Source of the DNA: a virus
Taxonomy: Duplodnaviria > Heunggongvirae > Uroviricota > Caudoviricetes
Reading direction: 5' to 3' (one strand)
Virus record (IMG/VR): IMGVR_UViG_2541047819_000005
DNA length: 5,186 nucleotides
The number at the start of each line of letters is the position of its first letter. Positions within the stretch are counted from its first letter, which is position 1. Under the pieces are notes generated by a model that saw only the letters and a program-made list of their open reading frames with translations, was not told the origin of the DNA and did not search any database. The position numbers were made by a program, and so were the translations under genes. Shown piece after piece: positions 1 to 4,869 of the stretch.

Positions 1-834
1 GCATGGGCGTCAACGTGGCGCATCCCGCAATTTAAAACGGTTGGTCTGCCGACAATGGGGGCTTACCGTGAACTACGCAAATTGCCTCGCGGCGTCAGCA
101 TTGCTGATGAGTTTGACGAGCGCGTCGAGGCTGCACGCGCCGCCGCAGACAGTGGTGATTTTGCGTTGTATATCAGCGCGCAGGGTGGGGCAAATGTCCC
201 GCGCGATTGTCAGACTGTCAGGGTCGCCCGTAGCCCGTCGGATGACGTTAACGAGTATGAGGAAGAAGTCGAGAGAGTGGTCGGCATTTACGCGCCGCAT
301 CTCGGCGCGCGTCATATTCATATCACCAGAACGACGGACTGGCGCATTGTGCCGAAAGTGCCGGTCGTTGAGCCTTTGACGTTAAAAAGCGGCATCGCCG
401 CGCCTCGGAGTCCTGTCAATAACTGTGGAAAGGTCACCGGTGGTGATACTTCGTTACCGGCTCCCACACCTTCTGAGCACGCCGCAGCAGTGCTTAATCT
501 GGTTGATGACGGTGTTATCGAATGGAATGAGCCGGAGGTCGTGAAGGCGCTCAGGGGCGCATTAAAACACGGGCTGGGAACGCCAAATCGTCAGCAAAGA
601 AACGGAAGCCCGTTAAAACCGCATGAAATTGCACCATCGGCCAGACTGACCCGGCCGGAACGATTGCAAATCACCCGTATCCGCGTTGACCTTGCTCAGA
701 ACGGTATCAGGCCGCAGCGATGGGAGCTTGAGGCGCTGGCGCGTGGGGCAACCGTAAATTATGACGGGAAAAAATTCACGTATCCGGTCGCTGATGAGTG
801 GCCGGGATTCTCAACAGTAATGGAGTGGACATGA
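1..834 (+). CDS. Phage replication initiation endonuclease (P2 gpA-like), C-terminal portion; 5' end lies upstream of the window
   Basis: Frame 1 is open from position 1 to the TGA at 832-834 (the ORF track starts it at the first ATG, 55). GC is high (a sampled 60-nt line is about 63%). It sits immediately upstream of the DUF3850-like ORF and the variable locus, the position gene A occupies in P2-like phages. The assignment rests on synteny; no catalytic motif was verified in this fragment. Confidence 0.55.
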   Translation, partial: AWASTWRIPQFKTVGLPTMGAYRELRKLPRGVSIADEFDERVEAARAAADSGDFALYISAQGGANVPRDCQTVRVARSPSDDVNEYEEEVERVVGIYAPHLGARHIHITRTTDWRIVPKVPVVEPLTLKSGIAAPRSPVNNCGKVTGGDTSLPAPTPSEHAAAVLNLVDDGVIEWNEPEVVKALRGALKHGLGTPNRQQRNGSPLKPHEIAPSARLTRPERLQITRIRVDLAQNGIRPQRWELEALARGATVNYDGKKFTYPVADEWPGFSTVMEWT

Positions 835-1286
835 TGGCAAAAATTCACGAGGTAAAGCTGCACGCAAAATATTTCGACCTTGTGCTGGAAGGAAAGAAAC
901 GCGCAGAGTTTAGGAAAAATGACCGTAATTATGAGCACGGGGACACGTTGATTTTGCATGAATGGGTGCAGGGTGTGTATACGGGGCGAAAGGTTGAAGC
1001 CCGGATAACAGATGTTACTGACCTGTCAGACTGGCTGGAAGATTATGTCTTGCTAAGTATTGAGCTGCTTAATACAGGCGCATATGAGATTGTGAACTGG
1101 AAAGAACTTAGTGAGCGTGGTCTGGTATTCAGAATTAATCATGAAATTATGCATCAGCTCGGCCTTGCTGTTATGTATGAACCAGAGACGGGGATGTCTG
1201 GCGGGGCAATGGTTGCCACGGATGGAGCATGGAACTATTCAGATGAACAGATGGAGCGTGCACAGCAAAACGGGTGGCTTGGATAA
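831..1286 (+). CDS. DUF3850/ASCH-like (PUA-fold) domain protein with a C-terminal extension of about 80 aa
   Basis: The ATG at 831 overlaps the upstream stop (ATGA, 831-834). GGAG at 822-825 gives a Shine-Dalgarno 5 nt upstream. The N-terminal sequence MMAKIHEVKLHAKYFDLVLEGKKRAEFRKNDRNYEHGD matches my recollection of the DUF3850 consensus (KxxxExxxGxKxFExRKNDRxxxxGD). 151 codons, stop TAA at 1284-1286. Confidence 0.6.
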   Translation: MMAKIHEVKLHAKYFDLVLEGKKRAEFRKNDRNYEHGDTLILHEWVQGVYTGRKVEARITDVTDLSDWLEDYVLLSIELLNTGAYEIVNWKELSERGLVFRINHEIMHQLGLAVMYEPETGMSGGAMVATDGAWNYSDEQMERAQQNGWLG

Positions 1287-1715: not shown

Positions 1716-2447
1716 ATGGATACTATAATCGCTTTTCTATCACTCGCTTTTTTCGTTGCTTTCTTCATCGGGTTAATCAAGCCATCACTGGTGCGAATGC
1801 CAAACCGCAAACGTGCAAGTGCGGTTTATCTCGGAGGAGGTTTTGTATTGAGCATAATTGGTTCAATACTCTATCCAACAGAAAAAAGCCAGCCAGTTGA
1901 TAAAACTGAAACATCAACCGTTGCAGAACACAAAGTCCAAAAAACATTCGAATATGGGGAAAAAACACTCAAGGAATATCGGAACGAGTCAAAGAAAACA
2001 CGACACGATATTGTGAATAGTTACATTGATTTTAAGGAAGTTCCAGCCACCGCGTCAGATGCGTTTTATGCCTGCATGAGTGAGTATACATTTACCAAAG
2101 ATGATGAGTTGAAACTCGGTGATGTTCTTGGGTGGTGCTTTAATGATTATGAAAATGACTCGAATTCACTAAACAATAAAATCAATCTTGATACATTTCA
2201 GAGTAATTTTAGTGGTTGGGATGGTTCTTATCGTCCATTGGAAAAACTAATTAAAGATAATATGAACGATGATTCATCTTATAAACATGTGTCAACGGTA
2301 TATCATCTGGTTTTGAATAAAGACCCGTACGCTATTGTGAAAACTACGTTTCGCGGTACTAATGCTTATGGTGGAGTGGTTAAGCAGACTATAGCTGCGC
2401 GCGTCGACATACGAACGGGAGAGGTTGTATCAATATTAGATAATTGA
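1716..2447 (+). CDS. Cargo gene 1: small integral membrane protein with two N-terminal TM helices and a C-terminal domain of about 190 aa of unknown function
   Basis: ATG at 1716 preceded by AAAGGA (1705-1710), spacer 5 nt. Two hydrophobic segments: TIIAFLSLAFFVAFFIGLI (res 3-21) and AVYLGGGFVLSIIGSILY (res 36-53), separated by a basic loop KPSLVRMPNRKRAS. AT-rich (a sampled line is about 37% GC). 243 aa, stop at 2445-2447. The ORF track's start at 1674 has no Shine-Dalgarno. Confidence 0.75.
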   Translation: MDTIIAFLSLAFFVAFFIGLIKPSLVRMPNRKRASAVYLGGGFVLSIIGSILYPTEKSQPVDKTETSTVAEHKVQKTFEYGEKTLKEYRNESKKTRHDIVNSYIDFKEVPATASDAFYACMSEYTFTKDDELKLGDVLGWCFNDYENDSNSLNNKINLDTFQSNFSGWDGSYRPLEKLIKDNMNDDSSYKHVSTVYHLVLNKDPYAIVKTTFRGTNAYGGVVKQTIAARVDIRTGEVVSILDN

Positions 2448-2457
2448 TTATAAGCAA

Positions 2458-2484
2458 TGAGTGCTGAATGGTTTTCTGCACTCA
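2458..2484 (+). repeat. Intergenic imperfect inverted repeat (hairpin) between the two cargo genes
   Basis: TGAGTGC (2458-2464) pairs with GCACTCA (2478-2484), a 7-bp perfect stem with a further 3 bp of inner pairing and a 5-nt loop. Immediately followed by TATAAAT (2485-2491) and the Shine-Dalgarno AGGTGA of gene 2. Confidence 0.4.
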
Positions 2485-2512
2485 TATAAATATGAAATTT
2501 TTAGGTGATGTA

Positions 2513-3448
2513 ATGGAATATCAACTGGATTTACAAGAGAATGCTATTGATAGTTTTAATGAAGCTTTAGCAAAGTATGAGTTAGGGCAGAGAGGAGAAT
2601 TGCGGCAATATAAATTTGCTATCTTGCATTTGTCACATTTTCTTGAGCTGGTGTTGAAGTTATATATTGTTACAGTAGATGAAAATTTACTGTATTCCGA
2701 TTGCTATAAACAAATAGCTACAAGAGCAAAGCGAGAATCAATCAGTCTTTTAGACGCATATAATAAAATTATCGAGGATGGCGTTGATTTAGGAAGGTTC
2801 ATTGAAGGGAAATCTAGGCCATATACGATAACCTTAGATCAGGCACTAAACTTTGCTAAGTGTGAGAAATGTGGCATAACTGGGGTTGATTTTGTAGATA
2901 TTGATTTTTGTAATGATATAGCTTGGATAAAGAATTTAAGAAATGATATTGAGCATTATCAATTCAGACTTACTCCTAAAGACGCGCGCTTGTGTATTGG
3001 ACGCCTAGTCCGGGGGGTAGCTGAGTTTATTGATATCTTCGATCTTTTTAATCTTGAAGATGAAGTCGGTGCAGATAACTTACAGATATTTCAAACTTTA
3101 GCTGATGAATACTCTCATAGGCTCTCTGAAGCCAAGAAAGAAGTTGAAGAAAGAGAGGCTGAAGCTTTTTATGGGGTTAGGCATAAATTTTATGAATTGG
3201 TCGATTGGAAAGTTTATGAATGTCCTGAGTGTTCTAACGACACAATGATTCCCTCTGATGAGTCTTCTACGGGTTACAAATGCACTTTTTGTCAGAATGA
3301 AGATAGTGATGATATTGATGTTGCTTGCGATTGTTGTGGTGCGCAGGCTCCCAGCAGCGAAATGAGCATTTGGCCAATGGATGATGGTGATGTTGAGTAT
3401 CGTTGTTACTACTGTTCAGGGCAGTATCAGGCAGATAAAGACTTTTAA
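2513..3448 (+). CDS. Cargo gene 2: predicted HEPN-like (Rx4H motif) helical domain protein with two C-terminal CxxC...CxxC zinc ribbons; candidate RNase-type effector
   Basis: ATG at 2513 preceded by AGGTGA (2501-2506). 311 aa. Motif R143-N-D-I-E-H148 (nt 2939-2956) fits the HEPN Rx4-6H signature, with the typical N after R. Acidic/basic coiled-coil-like segment EAKKEVEEREAEAF. Zinc ribbon 1: C237-x2-C240...C257-x2-C260 (nt 3221-3292). Zinc ribbon 2: C272/C274/C275...C298-x2-C301 (nt 3326-3415). Very AT-rich (a sampled line is about 27% GC). Upstream in-frame ATGs at 2468 and 2492 lack a Shine-Dalgarno, and 2468 lies inside the hairpin. Confidence 0.8.
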   Translation: MEYQLDLQENAIDSFNEALAKYELGQRGELRQYKFAILHLSHFLELVLKLYIVTVDENLLYSDCYKQIATRAKRESISLLDAYNKIIEDGVDLGRFIEGKSRPYTITLDQALNFAKCEKCGITGVDFVDIDFCNDIAWIKNLRNDIEHYQFRLTPKDARLCIGRLVRGVAEFIDIFDLFNLEDEVGADNLQIFQTLADEYSHRLSEAKKEVEEREAEAFYGVRHKFYELVDWKVYECPECSNDTMIPSDESSTGYKCTFCQNEDSDDIDVACDCCGAQAPSSEMSIWPMDDGDVEYRCYYCSGQYQADKDF

Positions 3449-3530
3449 TTTGCTGTTAACTGCTAGGGATGAAGTTAAAAATCATAGGGCTCATCGTTAA
3501 TTTATACTCAAATTTGTTTGATTTCTGCAT

Positions 3531-3554
3531 TGCATACAAAAGATGCATTTTTTT
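3531..3554 (+). terminator. Weak candidate intrinsic terminator downstream of the cargo cassette
   Basis: TGCAT (3531-3535), loop ACAAAAG, ATGCA (3543-3547), followed by a T7 run (3548-3554). The stem is only 5 bp and AT-rich, so confidence is low. Confidence 0.25.
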
Positions 3555-3573
3555 GCATGCGTCAGACGTGCTT

Positions 3574-3597
3574 GCTCTGACAGTATATTGTCAGAGC
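3574..3597. repeat. Perfect 9-bp inverted repeat with 6-nt spacer (GCTCTGACA-gtatat-TGTCAGAGC), about 60 bp from cos
   Basis: Read directly: 3574-3582 is the exact reverse complement of 3589-3597. No adjacent T-run, so it looks more like a protein-binding palindrome or packaging-region element than a terminator. Confidence 0.5.
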
Positions 3598-3631
3598 TGG
3601 CGCGAATCTGGATTGTTCGTGCAACTGCATT

Positions 3632-3655
3632 AAAACCGCCCCATGAAGCGGGCGG
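3632..3655 (-). terminator. Hairpin plus T4 abutting cos; putative intrinsic terminator for minus-strand read-through (or structural part of the cos region)
   Basis: Plus strand reads AAAA-CCGCCC-catgaagc-GGGCGG. On the minus strand this is a 6-bp GC stem followed by TTTTAAT. It directly abuts the cos 19-mer. Confidence 0.4.
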
Positions 3656-3673
3656 GCGAGGCGGGGAAAGCAC
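3655..3673. other. cos: P2-type cohesive-end site (cos), 19-nt GGCGAGGCGGGGAAAGCAC, joined as in prophage or circular form
   Basis: Exact match to the 19-nt P2 cohesive-end sequence as I recall it from the literature. Position is consistent: about 160-180 bp from the stop of portal gene Q and adjacent to the variable locus. Confidence 0.7.
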
Positions 3674-3834: not shown

Positions 3835-4869
3835 TCAGCCGTTGTCAGTGTCCAGTGAGTAGTTTTTAAAGCGGATGACCTCCTGACCGAGCCAGCCGTT
3901 TATCTCGCGGATCCTGTCCTGTAACGGGATAAGCTCATTGCGGACAAAGACCTTTGCCACTTTCTCAATATCGCCCAGCGACCCGACGTTCTCCGGCTTG
4001 CCGCCCATCAACTGAAAGGGGATGCGGTGCGCGTCCAGCAGGTCAGCGGCGCTGGATTTTTTGATATTAAAAAAATCGTCCTTTGTCGCCACTTCACTGA
4101 GCGGGATAATTTTGATGCCGTCTGGCTTTCCCTGTGGGGCATAGAGAAACAGATTTTTAAAGTTATTGCGGCCTTTCGAATTAGCCATGTTTTCGCGGAG
4201 TGAGTCAATGTAATCGCGATCCTGCAATGCGTCGGTGATATACATGATGTATCCGGCATGAGCGCCGTTTTCGTAATACTTGCGGCGGAACAGCGTGGCC
4301 GACTCATTCAGCCAGGCAGAGTTAAGGGCGCTGAGATATTCCGGCAGGCCGTACAGCTCCTGATTAATATCCGGCTCCAGCAGGTGAAACACGGAGCCGG
4401 GCGTGAAAGGTGTCGGCTCGTTGAAGGACGGCACCCACCAGTAAACATCCTCTTCCACACCACGGCGGGTATATTTTGCCGGTGAGGTTTCCAGTCTGAT
4501 GACCTTACCGGTGGTGCTGTAACGCTTTTCCAGAAACGCATTACCGAACACCAGAAAATCCAGCACAAAGCGGCTGAAATCCTGCTGGGAAAGCCACGGG
4601 TGCGGAATAAACGTTGAAGCCAGAATATTACGTTTGACGTAAATCGGTGAGCTGTGATGTACGGCAGCACGCAGGCTTTTTGCCAGACCGGTAAAGCTGA
4701 CCGGTGGCTCATACCATCTGCCGTTACTGATGCACTCGACGTAATCCAGAATGTCACGGCGGTCGAGTACCGGCACCGGCTCACCAAAGGTGAATGCCTC
4801 CATTTTCGGGGCGCTGGCGGTCATTGTTTTCACCGCTGGCTGCGGTGTTTTCCCTTTTTTCTTGCTCAT
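3835..4869 (-). CDS. Q: Phage portal (capsid portal) protein, P2 gpQ
   Basis: 344-aa ORF. Sequence (MSKKKGKTPQPAVKTMTASAPKMEAFTFGEPVPVLDRRDILDYVECISNGRWYEPPVSF...) is near-identical to P2 gpQ as I recall it, and the 1035-bp length matches P2 Q. Shine-Dalgarno GGAG 8 nt upstream. The start overlaps the P stop (TGATG). Confidence 0.93.
   Translation of the reverse strand: MSKKKGKTPQPAVKTMTASAPKMEAFTFGEPVPVLDRRDILDYVECISNGRWYEPPVSFTGLAKSLRAAVHHSSPIYVKRNILASTFIPHPWLSQQDFSRFVLDFLVFGNAFLEKRYSTTGKVIRLETSPAKYTRRGVEEDVYWWVPSFNEPTPFTPGSVFHLLEPDINQELYGLPEYLSALNSAWLNESATLFRRKYYENGAHAGYIMYITDALQDRDYIDSLRENMANSKGRNNFKNLFLYAPQGKPDGIKIIPLSEVATKDDFFNIKKSSAADLLDAHRIPFQLMGGKPENVGSLGDIEKVAKVFVRNELIPLQDRIREINGWLGQEVIRFKNYSLDTDNG

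Follow-up and report, generated by a model that had tools for sequence, protein, structure and literature searches.

What does the last cargo gene before the cos site of a P2-like prophage encode, and does it work alone or with its neighbours? The question is raised by a 5,186-nucleotide stretch of Caudoviricetes DNA (IMG/VR record IMGVR_UViG_2541047819_000005; the whole stretch is called the window below), in which an initial annotation had noted that one gene, gene 2, combines a HEPN-like Rx4H motif with a double zinc ribbon and had proposed it as a candidate RNase effector or nucleic-acid sensor. Our analysis identifies gene 2, by comparison of family profiles, as a distant homologue of the anti-phage protein HEC-08 with the same layout, carrying two zinc ribbons instead of four and falling outside HEC-08 itself. 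The gene is a single, self-contained unit with no link to the neighbouring gene 1, and we think it probable that it is a stand-alone, prophage-borne immunity gene whose product acts as a trigger-activated abortive HEPN RNase controlled by its zinc ribbons. The features of gene 2 on which the argument draws are the following.

2503..2508, plus strand: Shine-Dalgarno-like AGGTGA, 4-5 nt 5' of the ATG at 2513, seen by inspection of the sequence
2513..3448, plus strand: gene 2 coding sequence, 311 amino acids, with HEPN domain, linker helix and two zinc ribbons
2513..3040, plus strand: HEPN domain, residues 1-176, with core helices H1 (7-26), H2 (32-55), H3 (130-147) and H4 (155-175)
2645..2659, plus strand: Ex3[KR] motif E45-L-V-L-K49 in helix 2, auxiliary active-site residues by the criterion of PMC3710099
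2696..2896, plus strand: variable helical insert, residues 62-128, between core helices 2 and 3
2939..2956, plus strand: Rx4H catalytic motif R143-N-D-I-E-H148, at the C-terminal end of helix 3
3041..3202, plus strand: charged linker, containing one long helix (residues 187-219) in the AlphaFold2 model
3203..3310, plus strand: zinc ribbon 1 (C237, C240, C257, C260), with conservation equal to that of the catalytic core
3311..3421, plus strand: zinc ribbon 2 (C272, C275, C298, C301), with a variable loop at residues 281-300

The open reading frame (ORF), the motif and the four-cysteine clusters lie where the initial annotation had placed them, and RefSeq calls the same coding sequence (WP_004099450). 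An in-frame ATG at 2468, placed within the loop of a hairpin between gene 1 and gene 2, gives a 326-residue version that is annotated in many records; gene 2 homologues begin at the methionine encoded at 2513, and their N-termini lend the upstream start no support. Taken alone, the RNase motif is weak evidence, as the initial annotation had conceded, because it is common in residue shuffles of gene 2: Rx4H is present in 22% of them and Rx4-6H in 53%, and the form with a polar residue after the arginine, R[NDH]x3H, in 3.6%. The clustering of cysteines (CPEC 237-240, CTFC 257-260, CDCC 272-275 and CYYC 298-301) is not due to chance, since at least four CxxC pairs occur in just 0.1% of the shuffles. 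A fifth CxxC, C117-C120, had been overlooked; we ruled it out as a third zinc site, position 117 being a cysteine in only 12 of 47 aligned sequences. In some E. coli strains (HVH 69 and others) gene 2 is split into two ORFs, of 179 or 164 residues and of 152 residues, and the two halves also stand as separate PHROGs (phrog_22563 and phrog_25835). These split ORFs point to copies that are frameshifted and probably inactivated.

The homologues of gene 2 returned by a search of 5.8 billion proteins fall into 128 clusters, belong to Gamma- and Betaproteobacteria and reach as low as 37% identity; conservation was assessed in an alignment of 47 of these homologues reaching down to 38% identity. The residues N144, I146, E147 and H148 are invariant in this alignment and R143 is kept in 46 of the 47 sequences; E45 and K49, the helix 2 pair, are present in all 47. 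The cysteine clusters are likewise conserved, seven of the eight ligands (C237, C240, C257, C260, C272, C275 and C298) being invariant and the eighth supplied by C301 in 31 sequences or by a shifted C295 in 14. When 1.84 billion representatives (50% identity level) were searched exhaustively with a profile, 952 proteins reached E<=1e-3, and 319 of them E<=1e-10. Among the 99 full-length representatives listed, 93 keep R-[polar]-x3-H, mostly as RNxIEH, and 70 have exactly four CxxC pairs, with three pairs in a further 19. The retention of both the motif and the cysteines across homologues indicates that the observation is real and that these residues are under strong selection. Conservation is unevenly spread over the rest of the protein: column entropy is 1.25-1.36 bits in the core helices of the HEPN domain and 1.30 bits in ribbon 1, where the stretch SSTGYKCTFCxNEES is among the best-conserved parts of the protein, against 1.98 bits in the helix 2-3 insert, 1.96 bits in the linker helix and 1.92 bits in ribbon 2 (2.11 bits if its cysteines are left out).

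The AlphaFold2 model of gene 2, built with the family alignment, is confident (mean predicted local distance difference test score 89.9, predicted template modelling score 0.79). It reproduces the all-helical N-terminal region of about 170 residues that had been predicted from the sequence, and the linker, predicted as charged and coiled-coil-like, appears in it as one long charged helix. At the C-terminus, six short strands between residues 245 and 297 bear the four CxxC pairs, and some 40 C-terminal residues match the zinc-binding ribosomal protein L24e and a zinc finger (Rim2) locally in Foldseek, so that the double zinc ribbon is now carried by seven invariant cysteines, a beta-rich cysteine domain and these local matches. 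The remainder of the structural comparison was less productive: the whole-chain Foldseek search against the PDB gave no match at E<=0.001, the matches to Csm6, AbiV and HepT were weak, and a phmmer search of PDB sequences gave nothing beyond noise, in the form of C2H2 fingers and ArsD.

HEPN domains are four-helix bundles with frequent inserts between helices 2 and 3, in which the Rx4-6H motif runs from the end of helix 3 into the following loop with a polar residue (N, D or H) after the arginine, and a second conserved acidic residue lies in helix 2, typically as Ex3[KR] (Anantharaman et al., 2013, PMC3710099). All of these are found in gene 2: an up-down bundle of four helices, an Rx4-6H site whose R143 to H148 ends the helix at 130-147 and is followed by a loop at 148-154, N144 after the arginine, E45-x3-K49 in helix 2, and the insert at 62-128, which is about 30 residues shorter in short-form homologues. 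Profile matches were obtained through the relatives of gene 2: of the 47 family members, 25 match the Pfam model DUF3644 (PF12358; best relative E 2e-7), 7 match HEPN, 5 HEPN pEK499_p136 and 3 HepT-like, and several relatives bear a precomputed PF12358 label, whereas gene 2 itself does not match DUF3644 at E<=1. DUF3644 was classed as a HEPN family by Anantharaman et al. (2013, PMC3710099). The HEPN-like assignment, which originally stood on a short motif, is thus extended by the Pfam matches of the relatives, by the criteria of PMC3710099 and by the homology to HEC-08 described below, and together these support an N-terminal HEPN domain with a complete predicted active site composed of R143, N144, H148, E45 and K49.

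HEC-08 is a 366-residue protein with a DUF3644-type HEPN domain and zinc ribbons, from E. coli ECOR52 (WP_150698383.1), which defends E. coli, with plaquing reduced by orders of magnitude for at least two phages, and loses its defence activity when the motif histidine, H128, is mutated (Payne et al., 2024, doi 10.1101/2024.01.29.577857). We took its sequence from Table S2 of that study and assembled a family of 267 clusters, 32 of which were aligned. Comparison of the gene 2 and HEC-08 families with hhalign gave a probability of 94.6% (E 7.3e-8) over 241 aligned columns spanning helix 1 through both gene 2 ribbons. The active sites coincide in this alignment, with E45/K49 of gene 2 opposite E56/K60 of HEC-08 and R143/N144/H148 opposite R123/N124/H128; the catalytic E/K pair and the R-N-x3-H motif do not vary within either family, and the four CxxC pairs of gene 2 align with the first four of the eight in HEC-08. 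The homology is visible solely between profiles: BLASTP of gene 2 against HEC-08 is not significant, searches of the phmmer type fail to join the two families, and the gene 2 profile aligned with the single HEC-08 sequence covers helices 1-2 only.

Like gene 2, HEC-08 is a single gene whose product has a HEPN domain of the DUF3644 type at its N-terminus, joined by a helical linker to an array of zinc ribbons at its C-terminus. The two differ in that their identity is below 20%, that HEC-08 has eight CxxC pairs forming four ribbons with 16 invariant cysteines where gene 2 has four pairs, two ribbons and eight ligand cysteines, and that the helix 2-3 insert is longer in gene 2. Their settings also differ, HEC-08 sitting within Hma/type I restriction-modification (R-M) loci and gene 2 being cargo of a prophage hotspot. 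The two-ribbon form appears to be the common one, with HEC-08 as a four-ribbon enterobacterial offshoot. Most NCBI records name HEC-08 homologues 'hsdR', an annotation error that probably arose from their position inside type I R-M loci.

Among the models of PADLOC, the best match of gene 2 is PDC-S64 (E 3.6e-17, 60 bits), a partial match in three stretches, the best of which covers positions 3-87 of a 339-position model. PDC models represent putative phage defence proteins, derived by guilt-by-embedding in BREX, DISARM and type I R-M loci (doi 10.1101/2024.01.29.577857), and our literature search found no mention of PDC-S64. The model is also matched by relatives of gene 2 (up to E 7e-28) and by HEC-08 (E 3e-8); because HEC-08 matches it too, the three can be said to share the HEPN N-terminal domain. 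A weak match to the Csx16 HEPN model of PADLOC covers exactly residues 139-172. The wider EC042_2821/DUF3644 HEPN family, to which the Pfam matches of the relatives point, differs from gene 2 in that gene 2 lacks a restriction endonuclease or winged helix-turn-helix domain (PMC3710099). Both the architecture and the location of gene 2 are already described, in HEC-08, in PDC-S64, in the EC042_2821/DUF3644 proteins as a 'HEPN fused to ZnR' (zinc ribbon) and in the P2 hotspot beside cos.

Three other kinds of HEPN system were compared. RAZR (PD-T7-4), an abortive defence protein, begins with a Cys4 zinc-finger domain and ends with a HEPN domain of the DUF4145 type; by itself it causes no toxicity, and it becomes active when it binds phage proteins that form rings (Zhang et al., Nature 2026, PMC13017515). 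Its specificity comes from the zinc domain, which as a whole is the most variable part of the protein, and the activation of its HEPN domain through oligomer geometry results in non-specific cleavage of single-stranded RNA (PMC13017515). RAZR resembles gene 2 in joining a Cys4 zinc-ribbon-type domain to a single HEPN RNase, predicted in the case of gene 2, on one polypeptide. The reversed order of the domains, together with the lack of a PD-T7-4 match in PADLOC and of a DUF4145 match in Pfam, rules gene 2 out as a RAZR protein, and we treat RAZR as a mechanistic analogue only. Ishtar (ist1/ist2) is a monogenic system with an N-terminal DUF4145 or DUF3644 HEPN domain carrying RN(x)IEH and a further, C-terminal domain, found in defence contexts, integrons and P4 satellites (bioRxiv 10.64898/2026.07.06.735840). 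According to the sequences of its Table S3, this C-terminal domain is a cysteine-free alpha/beta domain in proteins of 170-260 residues, unlike the cysteine ribbons of gene 2. This difference in architecture, the absence of accessions of the gene 2 family from Table S3 and an hhalign probability of 9%, over 15 columns in the motif region only, rule out gene 2 as an Ishtar protein, and the ist1/ist2 primers gave no match at the locus of the A. baumannii gene 2 homologue. As for modules of the HepT-MntA (type VII) or RnlAB type, neither the window nor the homologous loci contain an MNT or an RnlB/Dmd-like antitoxin gene.

The surroundings of gene 2 bear on whether it acts alone. The flanks of the window belong to a P2-like (Peduovirus) prophage, and between them the G+C content drops from about 55% to about 35% over a stretch that contains gene 1 and gene 2.

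55-834, left flank: 3' end of the gpA replication endonuclease gene (phrog_91, 'nicking at origin of replication')
831-1286, plus strand: DUF3850/ASCH gene, followed by a small ORF
1716-2447, plus strand: gene 1, in the low-GC stretch
2457..2485, plus strand: hairpin between gene 1 and gene 2, with 12-nt arms, a 5-nt loop and 92% complementarity (-14.4 kcal/mol, z -1.8)
2449..3613, plus strand: gene 2 cargo cassette, G+C about 35-40%, with flanks shared with other P2-like prophages by blastn
3531..3604, plus strand: a pair of hairpins within the 3' tail of the cassette, one of them the near-perfect palindrome CTCTGACAGTATATTGTCAGAG (3567-3604)
3655-3673: P2 cos, 19 nt, GGCGAGGCGGGGAAAGCAC, an exact match where none is expected by chance
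3835-4869, minus strand: portal gene Q (Pfam Phage_portal), with the end of the terminase ATPase gene also on the minus strand

The interval between gpA and gpQ beside cos is a published hotspot of defence and diversity in P2-like phages, in which P2 itself carries old and tin (Rousset et al., 2022, PMC9122126). Within this interval no gene stands between gene 2 and cos, and other P2-like prophages hold alternative cargo at the same place. In blastn comparisons with prophages bearing other cargo, homology breaks at 2448, one base past the gene 1 stop, and resumes at 3614-3620, which together delimit a cassette of 1.17 kb. The junctions are sharp, one base after the gene 1 stop and about 40 bp before cos, and suggest that P2 prophage cargo is swapped as cassettes at fixed points. 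Nucleotide similarity to a Klebsiella copy of gene 2 ends at the limits of the coding sequence.

Gene 1 and gene 2 are separable by occurrence. Gene 1 was found in 84 of 5,426 complete E. coli genomes and gene 2 in only one of these 84, GN04171; hundreds of further contigs bearing gene 2 come from draft assemblies. The ORFs that follow gene 1 in other prophages are unrelated, and in Photorhabdus gene 1 stands alone beside ogr. Conversely, tblastn found gene 1 in none of the 11 other loci with a gene 2 homologue, and no small neighbour, nor any MNT-type antitoxin, is conserved across these 11 loci. What adjoins the homologues varies, although it has the stamp of defence or of mobile elements: a PIN gene and a type IIG R-M system on a Klebsiella integrative and conjugative element (ICE), Cap4-nuclease/SMC (Lamassu-like) genes in Pseudomonas, HamA-helicase (Hachiman) in Roseateles and an Mrr-like gene in Acinetobacter. 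A Klebsiella homologue is 71% identical and a Pseudomonas one 58%.

How might such a protein work? Most likely, two copies of the gene 2 product pair, so that their two Rx4H motifs would form one composite, metal-independent RNA-cleaving site, as in other proteins with one HEPN domain. Active HEPN RNases leave 2',3'-cyclic phosphate ends (PMC3710099). The long helix and the two Cys4 ribbons would silence the nuclease in uninfected lysogens and tie its activity to an infection cue. RAZR is a precedent for this: a Cys4 zinc-finger domain joined to HEPN can serve as the sensor of a phage protein, and the whole can stay non-toxic until triggered. This cue might be contacted by the parts that vary, namely ribbon 2 and the insert between helices 2 and 3, and ribbon 1 could have a constant role in RNA binding, dimer contact or autoinhibition. 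Once activated, the enzyme would cut cellular and/or phage RNA and translation would halt, leading to the failure of the competing phage or mobile element, to the benefit of the resident prophage.

Several observations weigh against a zinc-ribbon-controlled anti-phage RNase. Scans with the single gene 2 sequence found nothing significant in Pfam or NCBIfam, and the PADLOC hidden Markov model for HEC-08 does not match gene 2 at E<=1 (HEC-08 itself scores 1e-173). Gene 2 is absent, by tblastn, from the phage isolates of INPHARED (50,697 phage records). Ishtar, a related HEPN family, targets plasmids instead of phages. Finally, ribbon 1 matches the active site in conservation, unlike the zinc domain of RAZR, which varies throughout; in gene 2 only ribbon 2 and the insert do so. 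Since the zinc domain, taken as one, does not exceed the rest of the protein in variability, the assignment of a sensor role to it is uncertain.

The rival explanations differ from this reading in the target, in the partners or in the activity that they give to gene 2. The same enzyme could be directed at plasmids or satellites, such as the P4-like satellites that parasitise P2, perhaps by degrading the RNA of replication primers or other RNAs of these elements, a mode of action that has been proposed for the Ishtar HEPN proteins. The Ishtar HEPN proteins cause loss of RP4 with little killing (bioRxiv 10.64898/2026.07.06.735840), homologues of gene 2 occur on the Klebsiella ICE and on three plasmids, and the hotspot adjoins cos, the only region common to P2 and P4 (PMC9122126); yet what Ishtar shares with gene 2 is confined to the short motif region, its C-terminal domain being of another kind, and the closest validated relative, HEC-08, is anti-phage, so that we hold this reading to be unlikely. 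We give a smaller chance again to gene 2 supplying the toxin of an addiction (toxin-antitoxin) module through which the prophage is kept stable, with gene 1, a small ORF or an RNA from the tail of the cassette as the antitoxin encoded nearby. The structured non-coding tails of the cassette would suit such a module, but the window has no MNT-like or other antitoxin-like gene, no neighbour is conserved at the 11 homologous loci, gene 1 occurs with other cargo or alone, and similarity to the Klebsiella copy is limited to the coding sequence; RAZR shows, moreover, that a protein made of a zinc finger and a HEPN domain can be non-toxic alone.

It is very improbable that gene 1 works together with gene 2 as a two-gene system in which a membrane protein senses events at the envelope and signals to a cytoplasmic RNase. 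The two genes are neighbours on one strand with 65 bp between them, and the G+C content of each is low, but gene 2 is missing from 83 of the 84 E. coli genomes that have gene 1, every other gene 2 locus lacks gene 1, and the recombination junction falls exactly after the gene 1 stop codon. The C-terminal domain of gene 1 is moreover predicted to be periplasmic from its HdeA-like fold, an invariant cysteine pair and positive-inside topology, and we ruled the pair out as a system on co-occurrence and topology. Equally little weight can be given to gene 2 being a non-catalytic HEPN protein, binding nucleic acids or a ligand and regulating prophage or host genes, with its zinc ribbons as the part that binds DNA or RNA. 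Some HEPN domains are indeed non-enzymatic, such as those of MtlR and of the C-terminal domains of KNTases (PMC3710099), and zinc ribbons frequently bind nucleic acids. However, non-catalytic HEPN domains typically lose Rx4-6H (PMC3710099), whereas the families of gene 2 and HEC-08 both keep the R/N/H and E/K residues, and the motif histidine of HEC-08 is required for defence.

An immunity gene encoding a triggered RNase is thus the reading that we retain, and a more specific form of it may be put forward tentatively, as possible although on the unlikely side. The protein would be a compact pattern-recognition RNase, RAZR-like but inverted, in which ribbon 2 and the insert dock on an oligomeric protein assembly of a phage or a P4 satellite and thereby bring the HEPN domains of several copies into a catalytic geometry, while ribbon 1 clamps the RNA substrate. 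If this were true, activation of HEPN domains templated by an assembly would be a convergent, recurrent solution, and P2 prophages would be armed against the structural or recombination proteins of their rivals.

The fold, the architecture and the hotspot had all been described before, and gene 2 overturns nothing; it adds an uncharacterised, large branch to the class of one-protein immunity genes made of HEPN and zinc ribbons. Current defence finders catch this branch only partly, and a dedicated model would therefore help to annotate defence islands and P2 hotspots better. Its small size and self-contained nature make the protein convenient for studying how a single HEPN domain is switched between its off and on states.

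Some minor features of the locus remain to be described. The hairpin at 2457-2485 could be a terminator or an attenuator. The two hairpins at 3531-3604, for which no Rfam family was matched, lie in a segment (3446-3620) that folds with -49.2 kcal/mol (z -2.4), and may be the terminator of gene 2 before cos or a protein-binding site. Several phage GenBank records stop at cos (3655-3673 in the window). The gene at 831-1286, which combines DUF3850/ASCH, an RNA-binding-like fold, with DUF7415, is a conserved gene of the P2 backbone, found just ahead of the hotspot in every prophage that was compared. A 118-residue ORF 3' of the Pseudomonas homologue (L007, 7035-7391) has a weak match to EACC1 (Effector Associated Constant Component 1) and is not conserved elsewhere. 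Beside gene 1 homologues, the hotspot is occupied by ORFs of 232-260 residues without a Pfam or PADLOC match (L002, 5960-6742; L003, 5660-6358) and, in Yersinia, by an AAA_13 ATPase (L017, 2317-4632).

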